DNA of 64,000 nt, taken from positions 800,001-864,000 of the forward strand of contig CAVVHS010000006.1 in the NCBI GenBank assembly GCA_963748215.1. The letters are read 5' to 3'. The notes beneath the pieces were generated by a model. That model was given only the letters and a program-made list of their open reading frames with translations. It was not told where the DNA came from and made no database searches. Source of the DNA: an uncultured Gammaproteobacteria bacterium (GTDB lineage Bacteria; Pseudomonadota; Gammaproteobacteria; UBA9214). Below, one piece after another: positions 7,087 through 59,102 of the stretch; positions within the stretch are counted from its first letter, which is position 1; each line of letters opens with the position of its first letter. A program made the position numbers and the translations under genes.

Positions 7087-7261
7087 TGGCGCGCCCGGAG
7101 AGATTACTCACCCCTGCTGGGCTCGCCCTGCGGGCCACCGCTGCTGCGCGGCGACGTTCCCGGCTATTGCTCCCTGCATTGCTCTCGGCTCTGGCATGCT
7201 CCCTGCAATCGTGCGCTCCCTGCGGCCGCTTGACGAACTCCCGACCGCCTGGTTCGCAACC
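7087..7261 (-). other. att-like site: 3' half of tRNA-Arg(ACG) interrupted in the T-loop by a 128-bp insert
   Basis: TGGCGCGCCCGGAGAGATT | insert 7106-7233 | CGAACTCCCGACCGCCTGGTTCG is the reverse complement of a tRNA-Arg 3' half with CCA. IHF-consensus sites at 7289 and 7334. Confidence 0.8.
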
Positions 7262-7922
7262 TGATTGAAGCATATGATTTACATATTCAATCAGTCACTT
7301 GCGGTACCTGCCCAGCCAATACCATATTTGAGTTATCAGTCACTTGCAGTTCACTGCCATTGGAAGTGAGCACAAAACCAGCATAGTCCAATCTGCCTTC
7401 TGAAAGGTCCTTTTAGTTATGTGAATTCGAATGCGGCATGCACAGGGCCTTGAGTAACCTGGCGTATAATCTGCGCCGCTGGTGCTGGCTGGAGGCGACA
7501 GCAATGTGAGAACCACGACGATTTGTCGGACCCTAAGGGATGCGATACATTCACGGCTGACAGGGACCCGGCAGGTGCGAATTTCCGTAAAGCCCTGCTA
7601 ACATGCACGTCGGTGGAGTTATGTCATGCCTGAAAACCCTTTCTCAAAGGCGCACGAAACGCAGTGCTTGACGAAACACACTAAAGACCCTGTGCCAACC
7701 TGCTTCTGTTTGGCCTGCCCCCCCGCTAAGATACGATTTCATAAGCCGGTGAGCCTTACATTGCGCAAAATTGATTCTGATCTCTGGGTTATAGGTGCGC
7801 GCAGGCAAAGTTCTTTTCGCCGTGCCTATTTCTTTACGCCATCCGCTGGGGAACGCATCGTTGATTCAAGACGTAGCGCGAACATGCTTTCATCGTCTAC
7901 CGGGTAATTGGACGGGAGTGAC

Positions 7923-8915
7923 ATGCAAGCCAATTTCCTGATAACCGGAGCCACTGGTTTTGTCGGGCATCGTTTGGCCGAGGTCCTGGTCGATAAGGGC
8001 GCGCGCGTCAGGCTACTCGTGAGACAGCCTGAGAATCTTCCCAATCGCGTGAAGTCATCATGCGAGGTCGTCGTGGGATCTCTTGGCGATATTACGGCCT
8101 TAGCAACTGCAGTTTCCGACGTCGATGTGGTATTCCATTGCGCCGCTAACGTAAGTACCTGGGACAGGACTGAAGCCTACTACGAGGCAAATGTCGCCGG
8201 CGTTGGAAATTTGTTGAACGCAATATGCACACACAACCCAGGACTCAGACGCTTCATACATCTCTCCACGGTCGACGTGTACGGTTTCCCCAGGCACCCC
8301 TGCGACGAAACCGACAAGACTCCCGATGTCGGCTTCGATTATGGTGACACCAAGCGGATGGGAGAATCGATAGTCAGGCAGTTTTGCGATCGTGTGCCTT
8401 ACACAATTATCCGGCCAGCCAATATCATTGGCCCTTGCAGTCAGCTCATTGAAAGGATTGGACATGCAGTCAGCTCCGGTGTAATGATCACCATAGATGG
8501 TGGACGTGCCAATGCCGGATTGGTGTTTGTCGACAATCTAATCACGTACATGATTTGGGCGGCACAATCAGAAGCAGCCACCAACGAGATCTTCAATGTC
8601 CGCGACAATTACGATGTAACCTGGATGGAATTCGTAAGTACCTTCAGAAAAGCGATCGCCGGCAAGGGTATCGTCATTAACCTTCCTTTTGTTGTCGCCG
8701 AAACGATTGCGAGAGCATTGGAAACCTTTCATGTAGCGATCCTTCCTGGAAAAGAGCCGACTCTGCATCGCCTGCTTGTGCGAATATTGGGAAGGACCTG
8801 CGGACATAGTGCACGAAAGATCAGAAACGTCAGCGGCATTGACACGGAAATCGGATTTGATGAGGCAATCAGACAATCCGCTCATTGGTTCTTGTCCGAG
8901 GTTAATACAGACTAA
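7923..8915 (+). CDS. NAD-dependent epimerase/dehydratase (extended SDR, 3-beta-HSD-like)
   Basis: ITGATGFVG, FHCAA and YGDTK (YxxxK) motifs. Confidence 0.9.
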   Translation: MQANFLITGATGFVGHRLAEVLVDKGARVRLLVRQPENLPNRVKSSCEVVVGSLGDITALATAVSDVDVVFHCAANVSTWDRTEAYYEANVAGVGNLLNAICTHNPGLRRFIHLSTVDVYGFPRHPCDETDKTPDVGFDYGDTKRMGESIVRQFCDRVPYTIIRPANIIGPCSQLIERIGHAVSSGVMITIDGGRANAGLVFVDNLITYMIWAAQSEAATNEIFNVRDNYDVTWMEFVSTFRKAIAGKGIVINLPFVVAETIARALETFHVAILPGKEPTLHRLLVRILGRTCGHSARKIRNVSGIDTEIGFDEAIRQSAHWFLSEVNTD

Positions 8916-9099
8916 TTGCCACGCCGTCTCGGAAAATATGACGTAGAATACGAGCGACCCTTTACCAGATAACCATGACACCCAAGGACAACCACGAAAT
9001 TCCCTGTGTCCGCATCAACAATACCGGCCTATATAATCGACACAGGACCCTCTCGATATATGAATGTTTTGATATGTTAGCGATCTGATTTTACGTTAT

Positions 9100-10434
9100 A
9101 TGCCATTCCCCCTACCTGAAAAGAAGGTCTTCTTATTTCTGCAAGGTGCGCCCAACTCTTTTGCCAGACACCTTGCCGACGAACTGGAACGGCGCGGTCA
9201 CCGTGCCCTGCGTATCAATTTATGCGCTGGAGATTTCTTGTATTGGCTTGGACGACCCGCAGTAAACTATCGGGGCCGCTTACAAGATTGGGAGACTTTT
9301 CTGCGAAATTTTATCGCGCGTGAAGGTATTACTCATCTACTCTATTACGCAGACCGGCTTCCCTACCATAAGGTGGCGATGCGAGTGGCACTGGATCTCA
9401 ATCTGATCGGTATCAGTTACGAGTTTGGATATCTTCGTCCCGATTGGATCACCTTGGAACGCGGAGGGATGTCTGCGCAATCGCATTTTCCTGAAGATCC
9501 CGATTTAATCCGCCGTATTGCCCTACAAACACCTGCTCCAGATCTGACTGCGCGCTACCGATACACATTTTTCATGGAGGCGTTTAATGACGTGGTTTTC
9601 AATCTTTCTAATTTTTTCGGATTTTTTTTGTACCCCCGTTATGTGCCCGACAAGATATACAATCGGGTTGTCGAATACCTGAGTTATATTCCACGTTTGC
9701 TCAAGAGGCCTCGCCTTGCTCGACAAGCTGACGAGACCATCCATCGCCTTGTCGATTCTCAAAACGACGTCTTCGTTTTTCCATTACAGATGCAAAACGA
9801 CTATCAAGTTCGCGCGAATTCTCATTACCGACACCTCAGCGAGGTAATCCGAGAGACGCTTGATTCATTTTCAGTCCATGCGACCCCTCACGCACAACTG
9901 GTATTCAAGGTACACCCACTGGATAACGGTTTGGAGAACTGGTCAAATATCGTCGCCAAGGTCGCGCAAGACATCGGTGTATCGGACCGCGTAGCTGTAA
10001 TAGACGGCGGTGATTTAATGACACTTATACACCGTGCGCGTGGCGTTATTCTCGTTAATAGCACGGTGGGGCTGCACGCACTCCAGGCCCATTGCCCGGT
10101 CAAGGTAATGGGAATCGCTGTCTACGACATCGCAGGACTGACACATCAAGGACCACTCGATACCTTTTGGCAGAACCCGACTCAACCGGACACAGAGCTA
10201 TGCGACGATTTGGTGCGTGCCATCGCAGCAACTATTCAGGTCAAGGGAAACTTCTACACGACAGAGGGCCAGGCAAGGGCGATACCCGAAGTCGCCGATC
10301 GTCTCTTAGGGGGACGCATAAACGAGCCTGGGGCATTTGTCGATCCACCACCCCGCCTGGCGCGTGCGAACGAGTTAGGCGTTCCAGATGTCTTTAACGA
10401 CACGCCAATTGCGGCACAGCAAACATCCCGGTGA
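9100..10434 (+). CDS. kpsS: KpsS/WcbO-family capsule biosynthesis protein (beta-Kdo transferase, GT107-like)
   Basis: FLFLQG, E.GYLRPDWITLERGG, PLQMQND, KVHPLD and NSTVG motifs. Confidence 0.85.
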   Translation: MPFPLPEKKVFLFLQGAPNSFARHLADELERRGHRALRINLCAGDFLYWLGRPAVNYRGRLQDWETFLRNFIAREGITHLLYYADRLPYHKVAMRVALDLNLIGISYEFGYLRPDWITLERGGMSAQSHFPEDPDLIRRIALQTPAPDLTARYRYTFFMEAFNDVVFNLSNFFGFFLYPRYVPDKIYNRVVEYLSYIPRLLKRPRLARQADETIHRLVDSQNDVFVFPLQMQNDYQVRANSHYRHLSEVIRETLDSFSVHATPHAQLVFKVHPLDNGLENWSNIVAKVAQDIGVSDRVAVIDGGDLMTLIHRARGVILVNSTVGLHALQAHCPVKVMGIAVYDIAGLTHQGPLDTFWQNPTQPDTELCDDLVRAIAATIQVKGNFYTTEGQARAIPEVADRLLGGRINEPGAFVDPPPRLARANELGVPDVFNDTPIAAQQTSR

Positions 10435-10448
10435 TGTTCCACAACCTT

Positions 10449-11184
10449 TGACCGTACCCCCGTAATCCGAGCCATGCGGGTCGAGGGAACTGGTGACGGC
10501 CGCGCAACGGCTACGGGCCATGGATCACCTCAAGAACCGCGGTGTCAGCGAACGCCGGGGCTGCCGGCTGACGGGCTTCAGCCGATCGGCCGCCTGGTAC
10601 CCGGTGAAGGGACGCGATGTTGCCGATCCCAGGGCGCGCCACAAGGCGCTGGCAGAGTGTTATCCCCACTACGGCTATCCGACGCTGCACGACATGCTTC
10701 GGCGTGAGTGTCTGGTGCAGATCCCCAAATGCACCAACCGGATCTACCGGGAGGAATGGCTGCAGGTAGTCGACTTCTCGATCTCCGGTCAGCGCCTGGC
10801 GCGTGAGCTGGACCGGCTGGTCTAGCGTCGACCGTTACCCAAGGCCATCGTCTGCGACAACGGGCCGGAACTGACCAGCAAGGCGATGTTCTTCCGGTCG
10901 GGCAAGTCCGGCGTGAAGCTGTATTTCATTCAGCCGGGCAAGCCGACCCAGAACGCCTTTGTCGAGAGCTTCAATGGCAAGTTTCGGGAGTACTGCCTGG
11001 GTCTGCACTGGTTTGCCAGCCTGGAAGTTGCCCGGTCAACGAGCGAGGACTGGCGTGACCACAACAACCACGTCAGGCCGCACCGGGCACTGGGCAGGAA
11101 ACCGCCTGCGGTGTTCGCCAAAGAGGCTGCCTGATACGATCAGTCTCCCACATACCACCATGCTCGCATTCAGGGGTGCGGTCA
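10449..11184 (+). mobile_element. Internally deleted IS3-family element with both terminal IRs
   Basis: TGACCGTACCCC...GGGGTGCGGTCA IRs; broken orfB with CDNGPEL and PGKPTQNAFVESFNG. Confidence 0.85.
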
Positions 11185-11351
11185 CACCACCGCCAGATCA
11201 GGCCGAACGCAGCCCGCGATGCTTTTAGCCGATCTCCTCCAGGTTTGGAAATCACCGAAAAGGTGGGTTATCTACCCTGTACGCCACTTCTACCAAGTAA
11301 GCCGAGGCACACGCAAACCACGAGTTAGCCGGTTTCGTTTTGCACGCTACT

Positions 11352-12176
11352 TTATCTAAGCCACTGCCACAGCCGATTGAATCGATTGACCATCTTCTCA
11401 ACGGTACCCGCCTGAGGAATGTCAAACAACGGCCGGGATAACTCACCGACGAGATTCAAAAACAGCCTGGGATGGGGTGTTACCGAGCGAGCCGTGACTC
11501 CATGCAACGAGTGGATCGAGTTGATCAGGAACACGGCCACGTTTCTTTCATACTCGACCGTGCTGACCACTTCCAGATTCTGGCGGCCAGTAAACTGGTG
11601 TTCAAACTTCATTGGTTGGCCGTCGCGCGATGCATACAACTCGAGCGCGCCGCCGGACGAATCATCTTGATCACTGCGCAAGTAGAAGAGACCAGCAAAC
11701 AACTTGTTGGGCAAATCAACATGCGGTCCGCGCACGGTGCTTGTGCGACGCCTGATAGGCGTGTTAACGCAGATTTGCGCATCGAGCAAGATGTCTGCAT
11801 CCGAGAAGGTGTCAACATTGCGCACACCGGCAGCAAGTTGGTCCAGTTGACCATAGCAGTCTTCCAGCCAGGGATACAGCGAGCGGATATTGCCGCCAAA
11901 GACACGCATCACATCGCCGAGGAATCTTTGACTTACGTGTTCTTCCACCAGATCGTGCCAACACTGGGCAATCTGCGAGTTAGCGCGCACACTGCGGCAC
12001 GAATAGCTAAACCGCCAGTTGTTACCGTAGTTTCGACCCTGGGTAATCGTATCTATCGGTGGGAATTGTTGGATCAACTGCTGGCAAAGTTCGTCATCCA
12101 GGGCGTCCCTAATGACCAGATGCGGGAATGGGTGCTCTATAACCTGCTGATCGGAGATGTTTGATAAGAGCGTCAT
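11352..12176 (-). CDS. 2OG-Fe(II) oxygenase superfamily protein
   Basis: HPFPHLVI, PHVD (HxD), GGALELY and SLHGVT..R motifs. Likely start at ATG 12176; the longer ORF runs through IS91 sequence. Confidence 0.8.
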   Translation of the reverse strand: MTLLSNISDQQVIEHPFPHLVIRDALDDELCQQLIQQFPPIDTITQGRNYGNNWRFSYSCRSVRANSQIAQCWHDLVEEHVSQRFLGDVMRVFGGNIRSLYPWLEDCYGQLDQLAAGVRNVDTFSDADILLDAQICVNTPIRRRTSTVRGPHVDLPNKLFAGLFYLRSDQDDSSGGALELYASRDGQPMKFEHQFTGRQNLEVVSTVEYERNVAVFLINSIHSLHGVTARSVTPHPRLFLNLVGELSRPLFDIPQAGTVEKMVNRFNRLWQWLR

Positions 12177-12192
12177 TAGCTGTACCAGAAGA

Positions 12193-12375
12193 GGGTAGAA
12201 AGTATAAACCACGCATTTTGAAGGAATCCACACCGGAGCAGAGCACCACCACAGATAATATGCCAGGTTTTCCAGATGATCACCGGGTGTTCGATACTGG
12301 CGTTCACCTTGACCGTACCTCCGCAGGTCTGGCAGGTCTCGATGTCGATCCAGAACGCGCTTGAGGCGCTGTCCG
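12193..12375 (-). mobile_element. IS91/ISCR remnant A (transposase C-terminus plus oriIS-like end)
   Basis: IDIETCQTCGGTVKVNASIE; degenerate copy of the terminal block shared by all five remnants. Confidence 0.75.
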
Positions 12376-12444
12376 CTGTACGGCCAAGTCGATACACCCG
12401 GTGCTTGCCACCGACCTAACCCATCTCGCGCAGATCCCGGCACA

Positions 12445-12925
12445 CCGTGTGATTACCGTATGCTCCACCACTCTCCAACCAGAACTGCTTGATTAAACCA
12501 GCAGCTGCTAGAGAGCGGGCCTGTTCGGCTTCGGTTACCGTAACCGTGCGTAATAGCCGTTTGGGTGCACCTCAAGCAGGCGACATGAGCGTCGCACAGG
12601 CCGTGCAGCGCTGAATACCTTGAAGAAGTGTTCTCCACTTGGATTGGTTGGCGAAGTACACCGCAGTTTATTTAGGATGTCGCGTCCTCTTTCGTGCGCC
12701 GCAGCTGGGCGCGGAGTCCGAGTATCTCGCTCTCGGCTTCAACCGGTTCAGCTACTTGCTGCTCTGTTTTATCAGCCTGAACCGCTTTTGACCACTCGTA
12801 TGAGCTATGACTGGACGCACTCAGGCGACCCGAGACTTCGGACACTGAGAAACCACGATCAATGACCTGACGAACGGATTCATCTTTAAATTCGGGTGAG
12901 TTACGCTGACTGCCCAGTGGAACCT
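12445..12925 (-). mobile_element. IS3-family remnant; orfA fused in frame to the upstream glycosyltransferase
   Basis: GSQRNSPEFKDESVRQVIDRGFSVSEVS is an IS3 orfA-type HTH; degraded orfB start follows. Confidence 0.65.
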
Positions 12926-13583
12926 GCATTGCTCGGTATTCTTTCCACCAGACCTCAGAAAAATCACAATCACTGTAATCATTAAAGTATGGCCCACCAA
13001 GTGTAAAGTGGATAAGTGCAGGTAATTCCTCTGGCCTGTCATATTCATCAACCAGGAAATTCCACTCCAGTGGCAATTCACCAATTAATGAAACATTTTG
13101 AAGCCATTTGAATTGATGCAAGTATAAGCCGCTCTCATTATTCACGACTTCAGGGGTCAATGCCTTACATTTCCTGTTATTGAACAGCATTACCGATGAC
13201 CAATTCTTTTTTTCATACTTGCTTTGTGTCTGATTTAGAAATTTAGTAGATGTTTTTGGGGTGTAATCGTGCTTGACAACCTGAACGGCATACTGATCGT
13301 CAAACATGTCGACCAATTCCTTGATATCACGCGTCACGATCATATCGCAGTCCATAAATAACGATACCCCCTGATAATCGGACAAATAGGGGACCAGGAA
13401 TCTAGAGTAAGAAAACTCCGTTGAAGACAATTCTCCTTTATCGCGCTGATAAACCGGCTTAAGTGTATCTCTCGCAAGCGGGGTTATCGAAACGGGCACA
13501 CTGGATCGCATCAAAATAGAATGGCAAAGTGTATGGAATGCAATAATCTCCTGGCTATCATAGCCAACAAAAATTCTTATCAT
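12672..13583 (-). CDS. GT-A (GT8-like) glycosyltransferase with IS-derived C-terminal extension
   Basis: IFVGYD, STEFSYSRFLVP, FMDCDM, KKNWSSVMLFN and IHFTLGGP motifs. Confidence 0.85.
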   Translation of the reverse strand: MIRIFVGYDSQEIIAFHTLCHSILMRSSVPVSITPLARDTLKPVYQRDKGELSSTEFSYSRFLVPYLSDYQGVSLFMDCDMIVTRDIKELVDMFDDQYAVQVVKHDYTPKTSTKFLNQTQSKYEKKNWSSVMLFNNRKCKALTPEVVNNESGLYLHQFKWLQNVSLIGELPLEWNFLVDEYDRPEELPALIHFTLGGPYFNDYSDCDFSEVWWKEYRAMQVPLGSQRNSPEFKDESVRQVIDRGFSVSEVSGRLSASSHSSYEWSKAVQADKTEQQVAEPVEAESEILGLRAQLRRTKEDATS

Positions 13584-13894
13584 TGGTATTTAGCCCCGCG
13601 ATTCGCTATAGCTTGATAATCAAGGAACGCTTGCGCTGCATATTCATGTTGTGAAACTGTAATAAGTAATTTAGCGGAACAGAACCATATGGTGAACAAA
13701 CGATAATATTTAACAGTTACACCAGAAACAGATGAAATGGCTGAGTGAGATCGCAAGCAAAGTGCAACAAACCGTTCCAGATTCAATTTTTTGACCCTCG
13801 GTAACCAAAAGTTAAAAAATATGAATGAAAATATTCCACGCGTAGTTGTTATGCGCCAATTGATTGGCAAACATATCCATGTCGTTGAATGAGA

Positions 13895-14632: not shown

Positions 14633-14784
14633 AGCAGAAATATTTCTGAAGTGCTTGACGAGCATGAGAAGTATGCGCACCTACGAATAAGCGACAGGAA
14701 ACAATTCGAAATAAATATTATTTCAGGACTATTTACCCGCCCAAGCAACTCTCTCTGCTTACAGGACACATAGGAACATAAAGT

Positions 14785-17334: not shown

Positions 17335-17374
17335 AGAAACAGGAAACGGTTAAATGAAGCGTTAATTCGGGAAA

Positions 17375-36609: not shown

Positions 36610-36725
36610 TGGCGCGCCCGAAGAGATTACTCGGGGCTGCGCCCCTCGCCCCTGCGGAGCGCCGGCAGAGCCGGCGTTCTTCGCCGCTGCGCGGCTTGTC
36701 GAACGCCCGACCGCCTGGTTCGTAG
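36610..36725 (-). other. att-like site: tRNA-Arg(ACG) 3' half with 71-bp T-loop insert
   Basis: TGGCGCGCCCGAAGAGATT | 36629-36699 | CGAACGCCCGACCGCCTGGTTCGTAG (anticodon loop CTACGAA on minus). IHF-like TAACATATTGATA immediately to the left. Confidence 0.8.
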
Positions 36726-36846
36726 TTATCGCCAGGGGGCGTAACCATTTGTATTTTAAGCAACTCAGGCGTGGTCGCCCGTTGCATTCTGTACTACCAC
36801 GCACCACTGCGCTGGACTGATCCCGGCAAAAGTCCGGCAGGGTATG

Positions 36847-37852
36847 GGTATAGGAAGCATAACCCACGTATCTCGCGAGAATCCACCCGGGAACCGGCCG
36901 CAGCCCACCTTGCCCGCCTCCCTCCCGGGCCGGCAGCCTGGCCATGTGAATCCATGAATACCTGCTTGCGCCTCGTCACACCCATCCGTCCGGCAGCGCA
37001 CGCGGTGCCGGTAGCCGCAAACCCTCACGGACCGGCGCCGCTTGCTCCAGATGCGCCAGAATCTTGCCGATCACCGCCGGGTCCTCGATGCTGGCGATGA
37101 TCTTCACCGCACCGCCGCAGGCCTGACAGGTCTCAACATCGACAAGGTGAATGATGCGCAGCATCAAGAGAGGGTGCCCTGGGGCATCCGGAATACGCGC
37201 TTGAAGCCCTGTGCCCAGGTCATCGCAGACCGGCGGGCCGCCGGCGTGTCCTCCTCTACCTCATCCGATGCCTTGCGGTTGGCACCCCGGCCCCGACCCG
37301 CCTTCGTGACCCAGGCCCGGTGTGGACTGTTCGGTGCGAACACCCCGTGGTAGCGGGTCAGATTCACCCGTGGCCGCGGCACCAGCGCCGCCAGGCGGGC
37401 CATGAAATCCAGCGGCTCGACAAAATCGCCGGGAGCGATTTTGAACAGCCGAAGGCTGGCCCGAAGGGCGGAGGGCAGGATGCCCGGAGTAACATGACGT
37501 GCGTGGTGCCGTCCCGGTAAGGCGTCTTGAGCTGGTAGCGCACAGTTCCCGAAGGCGTCAGTGACAGGCGCGGTTCGGCAATCGCCGGCCGGGTTACATA
37601 GCGGCACAAACGCTCCAGCTTCTGCCGCTCGCCGCGGGCGGTGGCCACCCCGGCATACAGCGAGAAACCGGCCACTTTCGCTACCCGGGCACTGGACTCT
37701 TCCAGGCTGCCCGCCGCCGGCAGGCTCTGCAGGCAGAAGGCCTTGCGCCCCTGCTGTGGCCCCACGGCAATACGGTAGGTAATCGAACTGCCCAGCACAC
37801 CTTCCAGGCCGGTCTCGCCCGCCGGCTCCAGCGCAAGATAACTGGAATTTTC
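36847..37852 (-). mobile_element. IS91/ISCR remnant D with two small internal insertions
   Basis: GFSLYAGV..KLERLCRYVTRPAIA..LKTPYRDGTTHV..EPLDFMARLAALVPRPRVNLTRYHGVFAPN; oriIS-like GGGTTATGCTTCCTATACCC. Confidence 0.9.
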
Positions 37853-39761: not shown

Positions 39762-41056
39762 TGAACCGTAAAAGTTATTTCGAAAACTCTTCAGTTTGAG
39801 TCAAGCTACGACGGCCGACTCTTACCGTTACTGATAACAAGCCTGTTCTTTCTTTGCCGGCGGGACGTCGCAGATCGGCTCCAGCAGCCGGCGGTGATTG
39901 AACCAGTCCACCCATTTCAGAGTAGCGTACTCGACCCCATCGATGTTGCGCCAAGCCCCCCACCGGCGGATATCCCCGGTTTTGAACAGGCTGATAATTG
40001 TCTCTACCTGGGCACTATCATACAAATCGCCGACACTGCGGACCGACGACTCGACACCGGCTCCGGCGAAGTGCTCGGTATAGTGGATCGACAGATAGTG
40101 AGCACCCCGGTCGCTGTGATGCACCATGCCCCCCGTCCATGTCCTTGACCACAGCGCCTGTTCAAGTGCATCCAGCACCAGGTCCGTACACATTGAACTC
40201 GCCACCCCCTAACCGACAATGCGACGGGCGAAGACATCGATGACGAAGACTACGCCCACCCAGGTGGCAACGTAGGCAAAGTCCGCCACCCACAACGAGT
40301 TGGGATACGTCGCCGTGATCCACCGCTGCACGAGATCAGCCGGTCGATCGGCCGCATTGTCGGCTTGTATCGTCCGCCATGCCTTACCATGTACCGCGCC
40401 ATGCAGACACAACTTGCTTATCAGGCACTCCACCGTGCAGGAGGTCACCGGTATCTATTCACGGCTCAACAGCCGCCAGACCTCAGGCACCGTAGACCTA
40501 GAAGTTATCAGCCCATACGCGCCGAATCTCGGGCTTAAGCGTCATATCGGGCTGTGCACGCGGTGGCAGCCGTTCAGGATTGGACTCGCGGTGATTGCAC
40601 TCGTAATACGTCGAGGAGGCAATCGGCAACTACGCGCAAATCAACTTGACCCCATACTCGGATCAGTGCACATCGATAAACGACTTCATCACATCAGTCG
40701 CCGACCGAGATCCGCCCGGGCGAAAAAGCCGACGCCTTCGCAGATTCTCGTTGGCACGATTCAGCTCACTGTTCTCCCGCTCCAGCGCCTCGAGCCGCTC
40801 GCGATCAGACGTGGTCAGACCTTCACGCTTCCCTGATCCCGCCCGGCTTACCGCACCCTAATACGCAACGTCTCGGCCGTGCAACCCGCTTATCCGGCAA
40901 TCGAGTTCAACGCCGCTTACTGCGAGTCGTATTCAGCCCGGTGCCCGAAAACCAGCCATACCGCCAGTTCCCGTACTTACGACGAATAACTTGCTGACTT
41001 GCTCACGACTCCATCCTTTCAAGAAATTAAGCCTCCGGTAAAGCCGGGGCGATTCA
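39762..41056 (-). mobile_element. Degenerate IS3-family element (IS51/IS629-like)
   Basis: TGAATCGCCCCGG end; LWVADFAYV, IDVFARRIVG and HHSDRG in broken frames. Confidence 0.85.
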
Positions 41057-44436: not shown

Positions 44437-45236
44437 GGGTATAGGAAGCATAACCCACGTATCTCGCGAGAATCCACCCGGGAACCGGCCGTCTCACCGG
44501 CATCCCTGCCCCTGAATCCCCGCACCCCGGCCGCCTGCAGGCCGCTCCCGGCCCTCTGCCACCGGCTTCCGCTGGCCTCTTCCTTTTTGTAACAGCCATG
44601 GCCCGGCCCACCGGCCGCAGCCCACCTTGCCCGCCTCCCTCCCGGGCCGGCAGCCTGGCCATGTGAATCCATGAATACCTGCTTGCGCCTCGTCACACCC
44701 ATCCGTCCGGCAGCGCACGCGGTGCCGGTAGCCGCAAACCCTCACGGACCGGCGCCGCTTGCTCCAGATGCGCCAGAATCTTGCCGATCACCGCCGGGTC
44801 CTCGATGCTGGCGATGATCTTCACCGCACCGCCGCAGGCCTGACAGGTCTCAACATCGACAAGGTGAATGATGCGCAGCATCAAGAGAGGGTGCCCTGGG
44901 GCATCCGGAATACGCGCTTGAAGCCCTGTGCCCAGGTCATCGCAGACCGGCGGGCCGCCGGCGTGTCCTCCTCTACCTCATCCGATGCCTTGCGGTTGGC
45001 ACCCCGGCCCCGACCCGCCTTCGTGACCCAGGCCCGGTGTGGACTGTTCGGTGCGAACACCCCGTGGTAGCGGGTCAGATTCACCCGTGGCCGCGGCACC
45101 AGCGCCGCCAGGCGGGCCATGAAATCCAGCGGTTCGAAAATGACGTGCGTGGTGCCGTCCCGGTAAGGCGTCTTGAGCTGGTAGCGCACAGTTCCCGAAG
45201 GCGTCAGCGACAGGCGCGGTTCGGCAATCGCCGGGC
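44437..45236 (-). mobile_element. IS91/ISCR remnant E, near-identical to D
   Basis: Same transposase C-terminus and oriIS-like end; lacks the 71-bp insert found in D. Confidence 0.9.
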
Positions 45237-47968: not shown

Positions 47969-48213
47969 TGGCGCGCCCGAAGAGATTACTCGGCCAAATT
48001 CTACTCGGGGCATTACTGACCCTCGCGCCCTGCGGGCCGCCGCCGCTGCGCGGCGACGTTCTCGGCACTTGCTCCCTGCATTACTCTCGGCTCTGGCATC
48101 CTGCTTCGCTCTACCGAGTCCATCCATGGACTCGTACCTCCTGAATGGCCCAGGCCAGCTGCTCGACCCGGACTATGCCCGTAATATGGCTAACCTTTCC
48201 CTGCAGTCGTGCA
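47969..48213 (-). other. att-like site: tRNA-Arg 3' end plus truncated T-loop insert
   Basis: TGGCGCGCCCGAAGAGATT-ACTC...; insert is homologous to the 58852 copy, then runs into a MITE fragment. Confidence 0.75.
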
Positions 48214-50518: not shown

Positions 50519-50595
50519 AGTATTATTCATCTTCGTGAAAAACACTTACCCTTGGATGCGTATTCGACACAGGGATTGCACAGCCAGCTCTCAAT

Positions 50596-51378: not shown

Positions 51379-51434
51379 ATACGCCTGTCAGGCAACAATA
51401 TGAGGATCAGTGCGACAACACGCGGCCAACCGGA

Positions 51435-52154: not shown

Positions 52155-52252
52155 GTGCCGCCGCCCAAGTATCTGTCAAAACTGTAATAATCATCGATGT
52201 GGCTGTATCTGCTGCTGGAAACGCCGGTTAATTATCTCCCCTCCCCCGCCAA

Positions 52253-52344
52253 TGTACAACAGCGTACAGACGGAGCACGGGTACCCTTCGATTGCCGGCT
52301 ATGTACGCCAGCAGACAGACGGCGAATGAGGTCCTCCGTAAGCT
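52253..52344 (+). promoter_or_regulatory. Two Crp-family sites 49 bp apart plus -10 element
   Basis: TGTACA-ACAG-CGTACA (52253) and TGTACG-CCAG-CAGACA (52302); TAAGCT at 52339. Confidence 0.65.
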
Positions 52345-52467
52345 CGAATCATCGGAACCAGCATAAAAACCTGCAATGTCTGCAGCGCTATCCTGGCGAA
52401 GAGCAGTGTATGCCCGGCATGACTTGCCGATGCATCACTCCCGGACTCACCACATTAAGGAACGTTA

Positions 52468-52707
52468 ATGACCAACTTCAACACCATTGATACCATGCAG
52501 AAATACGCACTCATTGCAGTTGCCGCAGCCTTGCTGCTCGGCCTGAGTGGTTGTTCCGGGATGTCGACGCAGGACAAAAACACCGCTATCGGCGCGGGTG
52601 TCGGTGCCGTCGGCGGCGCAGTTCTTACCGGCGGCAGCACGATCGGAACCGTCGGCGGTGCAGCCGTTGGCGGCATCATCGGCCACGAGATCGACCCGGA
52701 CAATTGA
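52468..52707 (+). CDS. Glycine-zipper 2TM lipoprotein (OsmB-like)
   Basis: Lipobox LSGC; TAIGAGVGAVGGA...GGIIGHE. Confidence 0.88.
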   Translation: MTNFNTIDTMQKYALIAVAAALLLGLSGCSGMSTQDKNTAIGAGVGAVGGAVLTGGSTIGTVGGAAVGGIIGHEIDPDN

Positions 52708-52840
52708 TGATCGGTCCGCGACGTGCCTGGCCCACCCGGCCGGTGCGTCGCGGACTCTGATAACCCTGGATACCGGCAATCGGTGTGACCCACACGGTGA
52801 CTCCCCCTACCAGACACAACATCATCAGGAGATATACATC

Positions 52841-53035
52841 ATGAAATCAGTCAAGATCCTCAGCACAGCCTTGCTTACAAGTGCGTTGCTTATTGCACTA
52901 ACCGGCTGCGAGAAACAGGAAGGCCCGATGGAGAAAGCCGGCAAGAGTGTCGACAACGCGACCGAGTCACTTGGAGAACATATGGAAGATGCCGGTGAAG
53001 CCATCCAGGACGCGGCAAAGGACGCCAAGAAGTAG
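52841..53035 (+). CDS. Small lipoprotein
   Basis: AGGAG RBS; lipobox LTGC; EGPMEKAGKSVD. Confidence 0.8.
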   Translation: MKSVKILSTALLTSALLIALTGCEKQEGPMEKAGKSVDNATESLGEHMEDAGEAIQDAAKDAKK

Positions 53036-53260
53036 AGAGCGCTGTATATGGGCAACAACCAGAGTTAATCGTGTGTCGTTCTGCACTATCAAGGGCCCTG
53101 CCGACCGCTTGTGGGGCGCGCAGTCACAGCGCAAGTTCCTCACGCAGATGGGGCTCGACCAATGGACGCAGTCCGGGGAGCTGGTTCGCCCGGAAGTGAA
53201 GCGATTCACTCCGGATTAAGTGGCTCCGCGACAGGACATGACAGATCAGGAGTAACATCC

Positions 53261-53407
53261 ATGCTTGAAACTATTGCGATTATCTTGCTCATCCTATGGG
53301 TGCTTGGCCTGGTTTCATCGTACACTATGGGTGGGTTGATCCATCTTTTCCTGGTCATCGCGCTCGTTGTGATCGTGATACGCGTCATTCAAGGTCGACG
53401 CGTGTAA
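53261..53407 (+). CDS. lmo0937-like small membrane protein
   Basis: MLETIAIILLILWVLGLVSSYTMGGLIHL; AGGAG RBS. Confidence 0.85.
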   Translation: MLETIAIILLILWVLGLVSSYTMGGLIHLFLVIALVVIVIRVIQGRRV

Positions 53408-53514
53408 CGGCCCGGGAAGTGCTCTCTGTCGCAGGGGGGCTAGGTGAATCGATCCGGTGATTTCCGGTTTACCGGGCGCCTGCCTGTAACGAAAGCATCA
53501 GAGAGGACGTGATC

Positions 53515-53829
53515 ATGCTGGTAACCTTTTCCTGCCCGGCCTATGCGAGCATAACGATGTTCGGCGCGGATGCAGTCCGACTGCTCAAACTGATGGGGCA
53601 CAGCGGTACGGTGCCCGGCGCTCTGCTGGCAGTAGATGTCCAGGCGGCGCTGGAACACCTGGAAGCTGCGGTCGAGGCAGACCAGCAGTCGCCGGAACCG
53701 GAAGTGCCTGCGGAAGGAGAGGACGGCGAACCTGCCGTCAGTCTCACGCACCGCGCCTTGCCGGTAATCGAATTACTCAAGGCGGCGGCAAAGGCAAAAT
53801 GCGACGTGATGTGGGACAAGAGCAACTAA
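53515..53829 (+). CDS. DUF1840-like protein
   Basis: MLVTF...ITMFG..A..LLKLMGHSGTVPGAL...RALP.IELLKAA...VMW. Confidence 0.85.
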   Translation: MLVTFSCPAYASITMFGADAVRLLKLMGHSGTVPGALLAVDVQAALEHLEAAVEADQQSPEPEVPAEGEDGEPAVSLTHRALPVIELLKAAAKAKCDVMWDKSN

Positions 53830-53883
53830 TCCAGCAGTCGTATGTGACAGTTATTCCAATACCAGGCCGCCAACTATAGTCAG

Positions 53884-53980
53884 GTGGTTGTGCCGGAATG
53901 TCGGCACAAGACAGAAGTTTCACTATCGACGCTGGAGTCGGGTCCGTAGACGGTACAGTCGTCGGCGGCAGCATCGATAG
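53884..53980 (+). pseudogene. Degenerate second copy of the OsmB-like gene
   Basis: GGCAGMSAQDRSFTIDAGVGSVDG aligns with SGCSGMSTQDKNTAIGAGVGAVGG. Confidence 0.55.
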
Positions 53981-54156
53981 TCGATCAATCCGGCGTCTGT
54001 ACTTACCGCATACCGACCCCGGTTTCTGCTCACCGCTGTGTAGGTGCACTCCCCCGCCCCGCTCCTCCAGGCACTGCAATGGTGCTGCGAACTCCCTGAT
54101 AGCCCCGCCCGGGGATGTACACACCATGATCAGCTATGCAGGCAATTGTGACCTTA

Positions 54157-54199
54157 GGTACGCCAGCGTACCGACTGCACCTGATCCTGCGAGTAATCT
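54157..54199 (+). promoter_or_regulatory. Putative Crp-family site with class II promoter
   Basis: GGTACG-CCAG-CGTACC; -10 TAATCT at 54194. Confidence 0.65.
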
Positions 54200-54338
54200 T
54201 GTATTTGTATCCGGAGTTTCCGTGAAATGATCCCGTCTTCTACCCACGCGAAGTTACCAGGTGACGAAAGATGACTGCGACGAAGGATGCTCGATTGGCA
54301 ATACCGCCAGTCGGAACACTGACAAAAGGACTTTACAT

Positions 54339-54542
54339 ATGGACTGGAATATCGTTGAAGGCAACTGGAAGCAGTTCAAGGGCAAGGTGAAAGCACAGTG
54401 GGGCAAACTCACCGACGATCACCTCGACGTGATTGCCGGCAATCGCGATCAGCTGGCGGGCAAGATCCAGGAGACCTATGGCATTACGAAGGACGAAACC
54501 GAACAGCAAATCAAGGATTTCGAAGAGCTTGACAAGCACTAG
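54339..54542 (+). CDS. CsbD/YjbJ family stress protein
   Basis: MDWNIVEGNWKQFKGKVKAQWGKLTDD...GKIQETYG. Confidence 0.92.
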   Translation: MDWNIVEGNWKQFKGKVKAQWGKLTDDHLDVIAGNRDQLAGKIQETYGITKDETEQQIKDFEELDKH

Positions 54543-54703
54543 GAGCCTGTCGGACTTGGGACTGATCTACTGCGCCGGCGGGACAGCAGCCCATTTTTCC
54601 GATCCTCCTCGTCAAATAGCTACGGCTATTCTCCTCGAACGATCGGAAAAATGACCTCGCTCTCCCACCCGGCTCGCTACGATCGCCCAAATCCGACAGG
54701 CCC
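54543..54703. mobile_element. ~160-bp MITE with 18-bp TIRs, flanked by CTAG/CTGG
   Basis: GAGCCTGTCGGACTTGGG ... CCCAAATCCGACAGGCCC. Confidence 0.75.
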
Positions 54704-54810
54704 CTGGCAGCCGACGCATTTCTCCTGACCTGAACGACGCCGTACACGGCGATACGCCGCATGAAGCGAGGGTCGCACAGGGCAGGCACTTTACTGAAAG
54801 GATACTACTC

Positions 54811-55284
54811 ATGACAAGCTCTGAACGCTTCACTCCGCCACATGTTCCGACCGGGGGCGCCACGCATAGGGTTGAGCGCCTTCACAACACAGAACAATGG
54901 CGATGGAAGGCTCAGTCGGACGACTGGGATATTGAAGGTGGACGCGTGGCTGCAACTCACGCTGCCGAGCAAGAACCGTTCTCGATCGACACAGAAACCG
55001 TGGCGTCAATGCCGCTCCATCGTCATGAAGCAGACGAGGTCATGAACGCGCCCTCTGCAGCCGGCAGTGTTAGCCCTGACGTCCCTGGCCATTCCCCTCG
55101 CGGACGCTCATGTCCCCAATGCAATGGCCCCGTGGAACGTATACGACGCCGCATTCTCGATCGAATCGTGAGCTGGATTATGCCGGTGTACCGCTATCGC
55201 TGCCGTATGAAGGGTTGGGGTTGCGATTGGGAAGGGAATCTACGCACCAAGCGACATTCCCTGCCGATGCATGGGCTGCGGTGA
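54811..55284 (+). CDS. Hypothetical protein with C-terminal Zn-ribbon-like motif
   Basis: CPQC...YRYRC....GCDWEG; AAGGA RBS. Confidence 0.5.
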   Translation: MTSSERFTPPHVPTGGATHRVERLHNTEQWRWKAQSDDWDIEGGRVAATHAAEQEPFSIDTETVASMPLHRHEADEVMNAPSAAGSVSPDVPGHSPRGRSCPQCNGPVERIRRRILDRIVSWIMPVYRYRCRMKGWGCDWEGNLRTKRHSLPMHGLR

Positions 55285-55431
55285 GTTGTACGACGGAAGA
55301 CACGGCGCACTCGATCCATCACGACGGGGCGTCGCCTCGCCATACCGTCCAGGAACGCAGCCGATGAGCAGTCGAGTGATCGGAATCATACCGGCGATAC
55401 AGTGACGATCCACCTGCTTCGATCGAGGATA

Positions 55432-55474
55432 TGTACGACAGCGTACAGACTTGATAATGGAGTTCACGTAGTCT
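55432..55474 (+). promoter_or_regulatory. Putative Crp-family site with class II promoter
   Basis: TGTACG-ACAG-CGTACA; -10 TAGTCT at 55469. Confidence 0.7.
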
Positions 55475-55691
55475 AAACATCAGAGGTGAGATGCCGTAAT
55501 CGGGCATTCCGCCAGAATGAAGTGCGCAAGACGCATGCGGCGAAATGATGGGAAGCCTAGCTACGGGCGGGATAAGCTGGATGTGGCTTCTATCCTGGCT
55601 TGTCTCCGTACTGGACGTGGTGCATTTCACCGTCACTAGCCGACAGTAACGGACACATGAATTTATTCAGCTCAATTAAGGAAATATCACT

Positions 55692-56630
55692 ATGAAAACT
55701 TCAAAACTGGCTGCCGCGATCATCGCCAGCGCCCTGTCTGCGTCTATCGTATCAGCGCAGGAAATGACCGCGCCCGCCGGGTCGGCGAAGTGCATAGACG
55801 CGGACAAGCAACTGTCCCAGATGCAGGAGAAAATGCAAGAATTACAGCAGCAGATGGAAAAACTCCGGCAACAGTCCAGGTTGCAGGAGAACATGAACGA
55901 AATGCAGCAGCAGATGGGGAAACTCCAGGCGACGACTGACCCGAAGGAACGCCGGAAGCTGTTGCAGGAACACATGCAGACCATGCAGGCACATATGGAG
56001 ATGATGCGTAGCATGAGCGGATCCGAAGGCGGCCCGGGCATGATGGGTGGTCCGCAGCGCGGTCCCGGTAGTCCGGGCGGCATGATGCATGGGCCCCAAG
56101 GCGGTCCGGGTGGCATGATGCGTGGTCCGGGTAGTCCAGGCGGCATGATGTACGGTCCCGGTGGTCCAGGCGGCATGATGTACGGTCCCGGTGGTCCGGG
56201 CGGCATGATGTACGGTCCCGGTGGTCCGGGTGGTCCCGAAGATGGCCCAGGTGGAATGGGCGGTTACCAGGGTGGCCCCGGTAGCATGGGCGGTCCCGGT
56301 GGTCCGGGCGGCATGATGCGTGGGCCCCAAGGCGGCCCGGGTAGCATGATGGGTGGTCCGGGTGGAATGGGCGGTCCCGGTGGTCCGGGTGGCATGATGC
56401 GTGGGCCCCAAGGCGGTCCGGGTGTAATGATGCGTCGGCCTCAAAGCGGTCCGGGTAGCATGATGGGTGGTCCGGGTGGAATGGGGGGTCCGGGCGGTCC
56501 AGGCGGTATGATGTACGGTCCCGGCGGTCCGGGTGGCCCCGGTAGCATGGGCGGTCCCGATGGTCCGGACGGCATGATGTATGGTCCCGATGGTCCCGAA
56601 GGTGGTCCGAATGAACCGAGGTCTGAGTAA
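55692..56630 (+). CDS. Secreted Met/Gln-rich coiled-coil protein with long GPGGMM low-complexity tail
   Basis: AAGGA RBS; signal peptide; TTDPKERRKLLQEHMQTM; ~200 aa of G/P/M repeats. Confidence 0.8.
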   Translation: MKTSKLAAAIIASALSASIVSAQEMTAPAGSAKCIDADKQLSQMQEKMQELQQQMEKLRQQSRLQENMNEMQQQMGKLQATTDPKERRKLLQEHMQTMQAHMEMMRSMSGSEGGPGMMGGPQRGPGSPGGMMHGPQGGPGGMMRGPGSPGGMMYGPGGPGGMMYGPGGPGGMMYGPGGPGGPEDGPGGMGGYQGGPGSMGGPGGPGGMMRGPQGGPGSMMGGPGGMGGPGGPGGMMRGPQGGPGVMMRRPQSGPGSMMGGPGGMGGPGGPGGMMYGPGGPGGPGSMGGPDGPDGMMYGPDGPEGGPNEPRSE

Positions 56631-56954
56631 TCATATAACCCACCTTCCAGCGCGCCGAGAAGCTGTTCACAAACGAACAGCGTCAAGCCCCGCAGGGGCT
56701 CCCATGTCATGATGCCGCAGCAGACACGGTAACGATGGGTATTCCAGAATACTCAGGGAGTCACGTTCTGTACAACAGGCTGACTCCCTGCTTCTTTCTG
56801 ATCGCAGGACGTTCCGGGCAGGCCCGCGGTTAACCTGTGCGTAGCCAATTGTTGCTCAGACTGCTGCGTTCAACCGGTATAGCTCTCGAAAATACTGATA
56901 AGCAGCTAAAACGTGCGTGTTCAGAAATGTGAAAGAACATCAAGAGTCGGACAT

Positions 56955-57090
56955 GACCTTCATTGAGAAGCATACCAAGGCCCCGGCGCCTTACATATGG
57001 ACCAGGTCAGCAACTGATATCCTGGAGAAACTGAAACAGGAAAGAAAAACGCTCAATAAGTTACAAACTGTTTGAAGACTCACAATAGCG
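56955..57090 (+). mobile_element. IS630-family 3' remnant
   Basis: FIEKHTKAPAPYIWTRSATDILEKLKQERKTLNKLQTV* resembles an IS630 transposase C-terminus. Confidence 0.6.
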
Positions 57091-57224
57091 GATTCGGATA
57101 AACTCTATAGAGGCGAAATAAGTTTATCCAGGCCCTCTCGCGTTGCGCGATTCACGATGGGTTACGCGTGATCGTACTGATTGAGCCGGGTGTCGGAAGT
57201 GTTCCGCGAGACTGGATCAGGTCA

Positions 57225-58652
57225 ATGTCAAAATCTTTTAAAATCATCTTCCTTGCTGCCGGCGGATTCGTTGCCCTCCTCGTCTTCATCGCGGTCGCCC
57301 TGGTTGTCTTTGTGGATGCCAATGCCTACAAGTCCGACCTGGAATCGACCGCCACGGGAGCTTTGGGGATGGAAGTCAAAATCGACGGCCGGCTGGGGAT
57401 CGGCTTTTTTCCAGGCCTGCTGCTCACGCTGCGGGACGTGCACATCCTCAACGGGGGGACGGATATCATCACGGTCAAGGAGGCAAGGATCGGGGTTGAT
57501 CTAATCTCTCTGTTGCGTAAGAAAGTCCAGATCAGGAATGTCGCACTTATACAACCCAGGATCGCCATCGAACGGGACAGCGACGGCACGTTCAACTTCG
57601 AGAGAGCGGATGCGGCCGGAACAACCGCCCATGCCCTGGACCTGGCGAAACTTTCCCTTACAGATGCAAGTATTGTCTACGCGGACAAACTAACCGGATC
57701 AGGGTTCGAGGTCGCGGATTGCAGCCTGGCTCTGCTCCGTCTGCATTTTGCACGTGGGCAGAGCCCGGGCATACTGAAGAACCTTAGCTTCACGGGGGAA
57801 CTGGCCTGCGGAGAAATGATGGCAGGTCGCTTCGCTGCATCGGACCTGAAGGTTGCAGCCGAGGGAGGAGACGGGGTGTTCGACCTCAAGCCGGTCACGA
57901 TGCGTGTCTACGGCGCGCAAGGATCGGGGAACATACACGCGGACTTTTCGGGCGCAACACCGGCTTACGATGTCAGCTACGCATTGCCAGGGTTCCAGAT
58001 CAGGGAGGCATTCAAAATACTGTCACCAAAGCAGGCCGCGGAAGGGACAATGGATTTCTCCGCGACCCTGTCGATGCGGGGCAAGACCGCGTACTCGATG
58101 AAACGGACTCTCGCAGGACAGGTCTCTCTGCAGGGCGAAAATCTCACGCTCATCGGCACGGATCTCGATGAGGCATTCTCCCGGTTTGAGTCCAGCCAGA
58201 ACTTCAACCTGGTGGATTTGGCCGCCTTTTTCTATGCCGGGCCGCTCGCCCTGGTGGTTACGAAGGGTTACAACTTTGCGAGTATCTTCCAGGGGTCGGG
58301 GGGGCGCAGCAGCATTCGCAAACTGGTTTCCAACTGGAAGCTCAGGCGCGGCCAGGCGCAGGCCCGGGACGTGGCCATGGTGACGGACGAGAACCGCATC
58401 GCCCTCCAGGGAAGGCTCGATTTCGTCAACGAGCGCTACGATGATGTGACCGTGGCACTGATCGACGCCAAGGGCTGCGTCCTGGTCGAGCAGGAAATGC
58501 GCGGCAGCTTCCATAACCCTGAGGTGGAGAAGCCGAGCATGCTCCAGTCCCTGGCCGGGCCGGCGCTCAAGCTGCTCAAGCAGGGAAAGAATGCCTTGAC
58601 TGGCGCAAAGTGCGACGTGTTCTACACCGGTTCAGTGACACCGCCAAAATGA
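57225..58652 (+). CDS. AsmA family protein
   Basis: N-terminal TM, DANAYK..LE..A...LG..V.IDG, P.I.IERD.DGTFNF; beta-groove-like C-terminus. Confidence 0.85.
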   Translation: MSKSFKIIFLAAGGFVALLVFIAVALVVFVDANAYKSDLESTATGALGMEVKIDGRLGIGFFPGLLLTLRDVHILNGGTDIITVKEARIGVDLISLLRKKVQIRNVALIQPRIAIERDSDGTFNFERADAAGTTAHALDLAKLSLTDASIVYADKLTGSGFEVADCSLALLRLHFARGQSPGILKNLSFTGELACGEMMAGRFAASDLKVAAEGGDGVFDLKPVTMRVYGAQGSGNIHADFSGATPAYDVSYALPGFQIREAFKILSPKQAAEGTMDFSATLSMRGKTAYSMKRTLAGQVSLQGENLTLIGTDLDEAFSRFESSQNFNLVDLAAFFYAGPLALVVTKGYNFASIFQGSGGRSSIRKLVSNWKLRRGQAQARDVAMVTDENRIALQGRLDFVNERYDDVTVALIDAKGCVLVEQEMRGSFHNPEVEKPSMLQSLAGPALKLLKQGKNALTGAKCDVFYTGSVTPPK

Positions 58653-58832
58653 ATGGCTTGCAACGATACCGGCGTACTGGCGCCACGGCCGGCTGGTCAT
58701 ATGAACGCAGGCGAGGAAACGACTGAACAGGAAATACATTGAGGTGGTCGCTGGTGCAGGTGCTGCCAACACGGTTTCGGTAATCATAGATGAAGCCCGA
58801 AGGGATTCCAGGGGAAACGCCGCGGGCGGTTC

Positions 58833-59102
58833 TGGAGTGCCCGGGGAGATTACTCGGCCAAATTCTGCTCGGGGCATTACTGACCCTCGCGCCCTACGGG
58901 CCGCCGCCGCTGCGCGGCGACGTTCTCGGCAATTGCTCCCTGCATCGCCCAAGGGCGCCTACTTTTGGTGCCCCACCTCCTGCATGGCCCAGGCCAGCTT
59001 ATCGACCCGGGCTATACCCGTAATAATGGCTCACCTTCTCCCTGCAGTCGTGCGCCGCCTTCGGCGGCTTGTCGAACTCCCGACCGCCTGGTTCGCAGCC
59101 AG
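58833..59102 (-). other. att-like site: tRNA-Arg 3' half with 221-bp T-loop insert
   Basis: TGGAGTGCCCGGGGAGATT | 58852-59072 | CGAACTCCCGACCGCCTGGTTCGCAGCCAG; 59103-59243 is a diverged direct repeat of 7262-7405. Confidence 0.8.

Follow-up and report, generated by a model that had tools for sequence, protein, structure and literature searches.

A four-hairpin element in split tRNA fragments as the core of the tRNA-linked repeat family RF00391, and its possible mobility

A 64,000-nt stretch of an uncultured gammaproteobacterium (GTDB lineage UBA9214; GenBank assembly GCA_963748215.1, contig CAVVHS010000006.1, positions 800,001 to 864,000 of the forward strand; hereafter the window, to which coordinates given without a contig label refer) holds four fragments of a tRNA-Arg(ACG) gene that are broken at one and the same point by small hairpin-rich inserts, and a fifth insert of this kind within a transposase gene remnant. 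The question raised by this locus is what the inserts are and how they came to sit where they do. We call the ~70-nt four-hairpin insert element E and its copies e1–e5, while the IS91-family transposase remnants are called D and, for its paralog, remnant E. Element E is the core module of the known RtT / tRNA-linked repeat (TLR) family, Rfam RF00391, and we lean, with confidence only a little above even, towards reading it as a small non-autonomous element that moves as a single strand and has the T-loop as its optimal target. An earlier note on this DNA had allowed that similar tRNA-linked repeats might already be on record; as the element belongs to a catalogued family, it does not found a new one, and as far as our literature searches reach what is new is the evidence that it behaves as an insertion element whose target resembles a T-loop.

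The filled and the empty form of one insertion site outside any tRNA gene are both present in the window. Copy e5 (71 nt; 37420..37490, plus strand; 52.4 bits with R1, the covariance model described below) splits the Y2_Tnp (IS91-family) gene fragment D (37326..37684, minus strand), whose Pfam match is interrupted exactly by e5 at model position 149, and the paralogous remnant E carries the empty site GGTTCG^AAAATGACG (45131..45145, plus strand; junction 45136/45137), which at the junction reads GGTTCG^AAAATG. Positions 36893–37423 of D align with 44610–45140 of remnant E at 99.6% over 531 nt and positions 37491–37588 with 45137–45234 at 98.0% over 98 nt, an alignment that bears out the filled and empty pair described in the earlier note and adds two substitutions at the junction. 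The insertion site lies in the F-E-P codons TTC GAA CC of the IS91-family gene, which on the opposite strand read GGTTCG^AA. Among relatives, five genomes have this site unoccupied, at six loci in all, and one genome (G008) has it filled by an element identical at 70/71 positions, the aligned stretch as such being 86% identical. A transposase-fragment scan of 542 relatives outside the genus retained 80 loci, each uninterrupted across the site, in a ranking that favours unbroken copies. In the metagenome, IS91-family genes of several diverged lineages hold the core at the F-E-P site, and six metagenome contigs hold it at a second site of the same gene, CAGGGAG^AATCC, which is empty in D (CAGCGAG^AAACC; 37654..37675, plus strand; junction 37664/37665). 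Contigs of runs X1, X2 and X4 in which position 37420 is joined to 37494 via AA, the empty form, were considered as a record of excision and set aside, as they possibly derive from the 99.6% identical paralog; rare forms would in any case escape an assembly into contigs.

The number of sites at which the element is found was enlarged by a metagenome scan that used an exact 24-mer of hairpin 1 as its query and yielded 83 motif copies on 80 contigs and 96 model matches, 91 of them full-length and resolving into 54 distinct flank pairs, so that mobility is now argued from 54 metagenome flank contexts, beyond the single filled and empty pair with which the case began. Twenty-eight of the 54 contexts are neither T-loops nor D-loops, and these carry G at −5 (21/28), a pyrimidine (Y) at −2 (22/28), G at −1 (24/28), A at +1 (27/28) and A at +2 (25/28). 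The target common to the sites is G-N-N-Y-G^A-A, used in a single orientation, with the A-A of the right flank conserved as strongly as the G-N-N-Y-G of the left. The T-loop, G53-T-T-C-G57^A58-A-T, is the commonest and best instance of this target, and to that extent the T-loop motif proposed in the earlier note stands; the target itself is wider and includes tRNA-Ser D-loops and ordinary coding sequence, so that a conserved target is upheld across more copies, 28 non-tRNA contexts among them. Wherever the insert can be set against an empty site or native tRNA sequence, no target-site duplication is seen beyond, at most, a single ambiguous A. A hairpin loop as the target was considered and rejected: at the 28 non-tRNA sites, pairing between the two flanks does not exceed that of shuffled partners (1.68 vs 1.84 pairs), and the target is therefore a sequence and not a stem-loop. 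Two other flank contexts hold copies that match e5 in full (71/71), and copies at 14 of the 54 differ from it at no more than seven positions; e5 has no match among PLSDB plasmids at E ≤ 1e-3. One e5-type copy, seen at L191:1333-1424 and on ten similar metagenome contigs, lies between a membrane-protein gene and rplI-dnaB-radA at AAATTCCG^AATCCTGG; this spacer copy is fixed and common to many sediment populations.

As regards the tRNA fragments, ARAGORN finds no intact tRNA gene in the window, the uninterrupted motif GATTCGAAC has no match in it, and the fragments are read against the native tRNA-Arg(ACG) gene on another contig (C5:2666-2742). All four lie on the minus strand and are 3' fragments cut between G57 and A58 of the T-loop, in tRNA sense GGTTCG^AAT, i.e., GGGAGTTCG^AATCTCTCC, and the single split point and the lengths of the complete inserts (128, 71 and 221 nt) given in the earlier note are thus both upheld. 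With at most three mismatches, the 25-nt sequence that borders the split on its 5' side is present at three places (7234, 36700 and 59073; expected 0), and the 3' part of the tRNA is found at 7093, 36616, 47975 and 58839. In the first fragment a copy of tRNA-Arg(ACG) positions 58–76, from A58 to CCA (7087..7105, no mismatch), abuts e1 (7106..7233; 128 nt; R1 39.4 bits), which consists of core hairpins 2–4 and nested GCAGGGAGC-type modules and is followed by the tRNA part up to G57 (7234..7256, 23 nt identical). In the second, the 58–76 copy (36610..36628, one mismatch) abuts e2 (36629..36699; 71 nt; R1 62.7 bits), the simple four-hairpin form, and the tRNA continues from the anticodon to G57 (36700..36725, one mismatch). 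The third comprises a 58–76 copy (47969..47987, one mismatch) and e3 (47988..48212; R1 39.1 bits), a truncated mosaic that lacks the 5' tRNA part, and the fourth a 58–76 copy with three mismatches (58833..58851), e4 (58852..59072; 221 nt; R1 38.8 bits), made up of the core, a nested 57-nt repeat and other modules, and the tRNA from the anticodon stem to G57 (59073..59102, one mismatch in 30 nt). No such 3'-terminal copy applies to e5.

The 128-nt and 221-nt inserts are mosaics that hold other nested repeats, and insert modules recur throughout the 3.5-Mb genome, a draft of nine contigs. The first 94 nt of e3 are shared with e4 at 97%, and the four tRNA-Arg inserts are at most two lineages and not four independent hits. 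The e3/e4 type also occurs just outside the window, in canonical TLR units behind att fragments at C6:874-884 kb. One of the nested repeats, ~57 nt long (AGAAGGTGAGACC ... GGCCTGGGCCAT), lies at ~48145–48184 and 58984–59039 and also genome-wide (63 short-blast matches, 31 of them aligned over at least 36 nt), and it nests either in hairpin 4 of the element or amid motifs resembling GCAGGGAG, bordered by sequence of the type CAGGG | GTGCGGG. The DNA that natively follows the tRNA-Arg(ACG) locus lies just beyond the window end (C6:868250-884520) and carries an uninterrupted att fragment, then two canonical TLR units, plus at least six further att/TLR units of the same island array. The sole window match to Rfam at gathering score is an ALIL pseudoknot (RF01497, 53.3 bits; 40615–40731, minus strand), an IS3-family frameshift signal.

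Element E itself is ~65–85 nt long and is built of four GC-rich hairpins with conserved linkers, in the order 5'-AC/AG, hairpin 1, GAAC, hairpin 2, GGCCC(C)GNAGGG(G)CGAG, hairpin 4, GAGT-3', and its ends, AC... and ...GAGT, are not inverted repeats. Both 71-nt copies have a predicted four-hairpin fold on the sense strand (z of −4.85 and −1.94), in agreement with the common hairpin layout noticed earlier, and nine of the 12 predicted pairs of hairpins 2–4 show compensatory changes, which gives the structure covariance support. The description of a non-autonomous, structure-defined and sequence-targeted element without terminal inverted repeats, and without target duplication where an empty site is available, is therefore retained. 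The structure also distinguishes the strands: C-GNA-G accounts for 56 of 99 sense-strand triloops in 27 of the genome's own copies and for 132 of 208 in the 83 metagenome copies, and the complementary TNC type for none in either set. Loops of the d(C-GNA-G) type form exceptionally stable DNA mini-hairpins. An E-like four-hairpin module, CCAATTCGCCGGGAGCGAATTGG ... GGCCCGCAGGGCGAAGTCCAGGGATGGACTTCGCA flanked by TTTCGCCC...GGGCGAGGTAC, is also embedded in five copies of another repeat (C2:7025, C2:32334, C3:751, C5:41481 and C6:1038789).

The identity of the element follows from its relation to RF00391. Seven tRNA-linked units of the genome reach the gathering score of this model (45 bits) at 45.9–61.2 bits, and 25 matches are found at E ≤ 1; within the window no copy reaches it, the best being e2 with 28.8 bits (36610–36745, E 0.002), since the 5' part of the RtT model has no counterpart in the window copies. 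The Rfam consensus alignment reads GGUUCGA, core, CGAGUAAUCC and the tRNA 3' end, and has the same junctions as found here. A scan with both halves of all 43 tRNAs showed many genes to have a second copy of their last 19 nt ~150–180 nt downstream, and the nine such loci that were read share one recurring layout of one to three tandem units, each canonical unit following the tRNA (often with a terminator) with an inverted T-arm copy or the motif GGATGAGAAC, a short spacer, GGTTCG, the hairpin core, and AATCC with the remaining tRNA 3' end. Such units lie directly downstream of their RNA gene at nine tRNA genes elsewhere in the genome, which is not so for the window copies. In the TLR units of tRNA-Arg(ACG), tRNA-Ser(GCT) and tRNA-Ser(GGA), and likewise in the lysQ unit of E. 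coli (L250:1330-1500), an own inverted T-arm copy lies just 5' of the GGTTCG-core; one example, AGAGGTTCGAACTCCCGAC, matches the reverse complement of tRNA-Arg 46–65 at 19 of 20 positions.

The covariance model R1, built from 20 copies of this genome only, finds 47 copies in the genome, five of them in the window, and at E ≤ 1e-5 has matches in 35 of the 38 genomes searched from the order, a spread that leaves presence/absence profiling within the order without power. In E. coli K-12, the sole E. coli genome searched, it finds 16 copies, all of which (16/16) adjoin tRNA or 5S genes: ten belong to operons in which identical tRNA genes stand in tandem (tyrTV, the lys-val operon, valUXY-lysV and argQZYV) and another three sit behind 5S genes of multicopy rrn operons, a distribution that fits TLRs having begun as redundant gene copies that took an insertion and decayed afterwards. 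The rrnA core, of the same subtype as e5, interrupts a 3' fragment of 5S immediately ahead of AACTGCCAGGCAT, and R1 scores 36.7 bits at each of rrnA, rrnB and rrnD. According to PMC8144298, E. coli K-12 has 22 TLRs at ten loci and the family has been known in this species since 1978 (Egan and Landy 1978 and Rudd 1999, with Bosl and Kersten 1991/1994 also cited on TLRs). Raised mobilome coverage of the tyrT-rttR region is described, and circles are not reported there, in the accessible part of bioRxiv 10.1101/2024.07.17.603846. TLRs have no mention in the accessible part of PMC3531124, nor has RtT in the latest version of PMC10542128, and a description of TLRs as insertions was not found in the literature searched, which left out most subscription journals and older papers.

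That E. coli TLRs are transcribed and processed, and that RrA, RrB and RrF bind Hfq and CsrA in vitro (PMC8144298), would suit a functional RNA module, of the type of RtT or the RrA/B/F small RNAs cut from tRNA and rRNA transcripts, that spreads via RNA insertion into T-loop-like RNA, reverse transcription and recombination, as would the orientation of the element, which is always along the tRNA sense strand. We regard this origin as very unlikely, given that e5 is antisense to the transposase gene it interrupts, that insertions which break genes look selfish rather than functional, and that the GNA triloops point to stability as DNA and not as RNA.

Across the genome, the core is found within att-type 3' fragments of tRNA-Arg, tRNA-Lys (seven copies with one common core) and tRNA-Pro, the T-loop of which reads TTCAAAT, with a junction that follows it. 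The intact tRNA-Gln(TTG) gene is immediately preceded by an almost complete second copy; this pseudogene (C8:225176-225282, minus strand) keeps the whole 5' part as far as G57, then has the core and 10 nt of the 3' part, and likely represents a stage on the way from a tandem copy struck by an insertion to a TLR. In 5' fragments of tRNA-Ser(GGA) and tRNA-Ser(TGA) it is the D-loop that is hit, at GGTTG^AAG and GGTCG^AAAG, with tRNA sequence continuing on both sides, and removing element E restores the tRNA sequence exactly. Upstream of tRNA-Ser(TGA) (C6:477214-477661, minus strand) there are three tandem ~172-nt units, a mirror image of the usual TLR, each consisting of the first 22 nt of the tRNA, the core in the D-loop and a D-arm remnant. 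Automatic sorting of the 47 copies gave 26 with a 3' tRNA copy only, four whose 5' side matches tRNA over at least 15 nt and 17 in which the nearest 40 nt hold no 3' copy; this sorting is crude, in that single mismatches and nested repeats break it, and locus-by-locus reading was preferred.

These contexts also bear on whether transposition is needed at all, as the element might have spread only by recombination between sequences that share a T-loop half (gene conversion, template switching, or deletion joining a tRNA fragment to the pseudo-T-loop of an adjoining TLR) and then have been inherited with att sites and IS copies. An att fragment followed by a TLR of the same core type is indeed found at C6:876200-876700 and at 884379, where deletion between two GAGTTCGA repeats would yield the split form seen in the window, the same logic holding for tRNA-Pro; the single core common to all tRNA-Lys copies, the substitutions at the junctions, which resemble a co-converted donor flank, and the possibility that conversion from IS to IS put the same element in D and in G008 lend it further weight. 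It nevertheless seems unlikely as the whole account: the 28 distinct non-tRNA contexts share only G-N-N-Y-G^A-A with donors, which is too little homology to convert again and again, the empty forms of the D-loop and IS91 sites show the two native flanks directly joined, and near-identical copies occur at unrelated sites.

A site-specific origin comes to mind on account of the T-loop, in which many integrases cross over, and of the element's presence in island att fragments of three tRNAs and in TLR units bounded by direct copies of the tRNA 3' end. The element could then be a remnant of tyrosine or serine recombination, either what tiny integrative elements left behind or an attP arm-type binding region. 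We consider this quite unlikely, since no core is duplicated at both junctions (left GGTTCG|AC, right GAGT|AAT), the 19-nt repeat is different for each tRNA, and copies in coding DNA have no att-like repeat; the genome has four PF00589 matches at E ≤ 1e-5, none of them in the window (0/4), a search that may miss weaker integrases.

Candidates for an enzyme that moves the element were sought among transposases with single-strand activity, and links to REP-associated tyrosine transposases (RAYT) or other Y1 enzymes, which the earlier note had marked for checking, did not materialise: the five PF01797 genes of the genome are RAYTs with GTAG-type REPs of their own and have no E-like ends, and blast of e1–e5 against the five loci gave only 10–20 nt chance matches. 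With its filters off, R1 detects nothing near these genes except tRNA-Lys att copies, which lie 1.3 kb away from two of the five. These two are identical RAYT-like Y1 genes (C9:316317-316643 and 333650-333976) in duplicated islands, ~1.3 kb from E-carrying tRNA-Lys att fragments, and their closeness to the element is probably coincidence, because their flanking repeats differ from element E. A Y2/IS91 enzyme as a required partner was likewise judged unlikely, with three Y2_Tnp fragments in the genome and a match in none of 14 control genomes, E. coli included. A programmable recombinase, whether of the IS110 type guided by a bridge RNA or another with a target loop matching the T-loop, would account for the lack of duplication and of terminal inverted repeats and for a ~7–10 nt target to which both flanks contribute, and the IS110 family has a preference for repeated hairpins; even so, the element is too short to encode a bridge RNA and no core dinucleotide is repeated at both junctions, and this is the most improbable of the routes considered here.

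Under the single-strand transposition that we favour, the element would move as a folded single strand, namely the one with tRNA sense, by means of an enzyme acting in trans, for which an HUH-type single-strand nuclease/ligase would fit the anatomy best, and would be received by a T-loop-type target sequence, GGTTCGAATCC. A hit in a tRNA gene that the cell needs would be lethal, and the insertions that persist would therefore be confined to targets that can be spared. These would be the att duplicates that islands carry, surplus members of tandem tRNA or 5S arrays, sequences resembling D-loops, and stretches of coding sequence that mimic the target by chance, as the IS91 F-E-P codons do. Redundant tandem tRNA or 5S copies that had been hit would then decay into TLR units, and the 19-nt identity to the tRNA 3' end would simply be what lies 3' of the insertion point. 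A wider proposal, which we put forward tentatively as possible rather than probable, is that every gammaproteobacterial RtT or RrA/B/F repeat is an insertion, either fixed or in decay, of one T-loop-homing single-strand family (G53-T-T-C-G57^A58-A), in which the 19-nt identity is the part of the hit redundant gene copy 3' of the insertion, and which may still be active in marine sediment bacteria, moved by a dedicated or host enzyme not yet linked to mobile DNA.

Several observations weigh against single-strand transposition of this kind. No moving enzyme was found among the Y1_Tnp and Y2_Tnp genes examined, and E. coli has TLRs yet no Y2_Tnp match. Just 2 nt and 5 nt separate the hairpins from the ends of the element, and target bases lie on both flanks, a geometry unlike that of IS608-type ends. 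The junction in D has two substitutions, −4 T>C and +3 A>C, and +3 is C at three kinds of filled site other than T-loops where the native base is A or G; such junction substitutions look like co-conversion of a donor flank and suggest that short-homology copying may fit better than clean cut-and-paste. The split tRNA-Arg form could come from deletion between an att fragment and an adjacent TLR via the GAGTTCGA repeats, and the inverted T-arm copy of canonical TLRs, here and in E. coli, is left unexplained by simple insertion. Finally, a near-identical empty partner is known for one site family only, E. coli K-12 has no copy outside stable-RNA operons, and ascertainment of the metagenome copies by an exact 24-mer favours young ones.

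The TLRs of E. coli tRNA and rRNA operons have gone unexplained ever since 1978, and should their core prove to be mobile and to have a target resembling the T-loop, the origin of TLRs, the 19-nt identity and the restriction to stable-RNA operons become testable. One TLR sits between terminators T1 and T2 of rrnB, and the rrnB T1-T2 terminator cassette is present in many cloning vectors. For annotation, split tRNA fragments at island borders and IS91-family frameshifts at F-E-P codons become readable as insertions of the element, and a new target-specific mobilisation mechanism without duplication may await discovery.

Among known systems, REP/REPIN sequences with their RAYTs resemble the element in being short, GC-rich, abundant and extragenic hairpin repeats of mosaic, BIME-like nesting; the element differs from them in having no GTAG head and no inverted REP doublets and in having a defined insertion target, and the RAYTs of this genome have other REPs. 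From classical miniature inverted-repeat transposable elements (MITEs) moved by DDE transposases it is set apart by having neither terminal inverted repeats nor target-site duplication. Rickettsia palindromic elements and Correia-type MITEs are likewise tiny non-coding insertions that land inside genes, RNA genes included, but carry terminal inverted repeats and/or target duplications, of which the element has neither. Ends of the IS91 family adjoin a GTTC/CTTG target; GTTC lies in the T-loop one base before the junction and is absent at the non-tRNA sites, and the IS91 family is represented in the genome by the three Y2_Tnp fragments. With the PATEs of IS200/IS605 and HUH systems the element shares the lack of terminal inverted repeats and of target duplication, a seamless empty site, subterminal hairpins, a fixed orientation to a short target and strand asymmetry; it differs in the distance of its hairpins from the ends, in the conserved target bases on both sides of the insertion point, and in that the genome holds no cognate Y1 transposase with matching ends. 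RrA, RrB and RrF, which in E. coli rrnA, rrnB and rrnD occupy the interval from terminator T1 to T2 and for which titration of CsrA/Hfq has been proposed as a function (PMC8144298), contain an element of the same subtype as e5, ACAAATCCGCCGGGAGCGGATTTGAAC ... GGGCAGGACGCCC, and differ in that the core splits a 5S rRNA 3' fragment. RtT/TLRs, so far described as repeats or small RNAs without known function, lie behind a tRNA gene, whereas the window copies sit in island att fragments and a transposase gene; the likeness extends to the core, the hairpins, the junctions (GGTTCG|core|AATCC and the tRNA 3' end), the 18–19 nt identity to the upstream RNA gene and the tandem units of ~170–180 nt.

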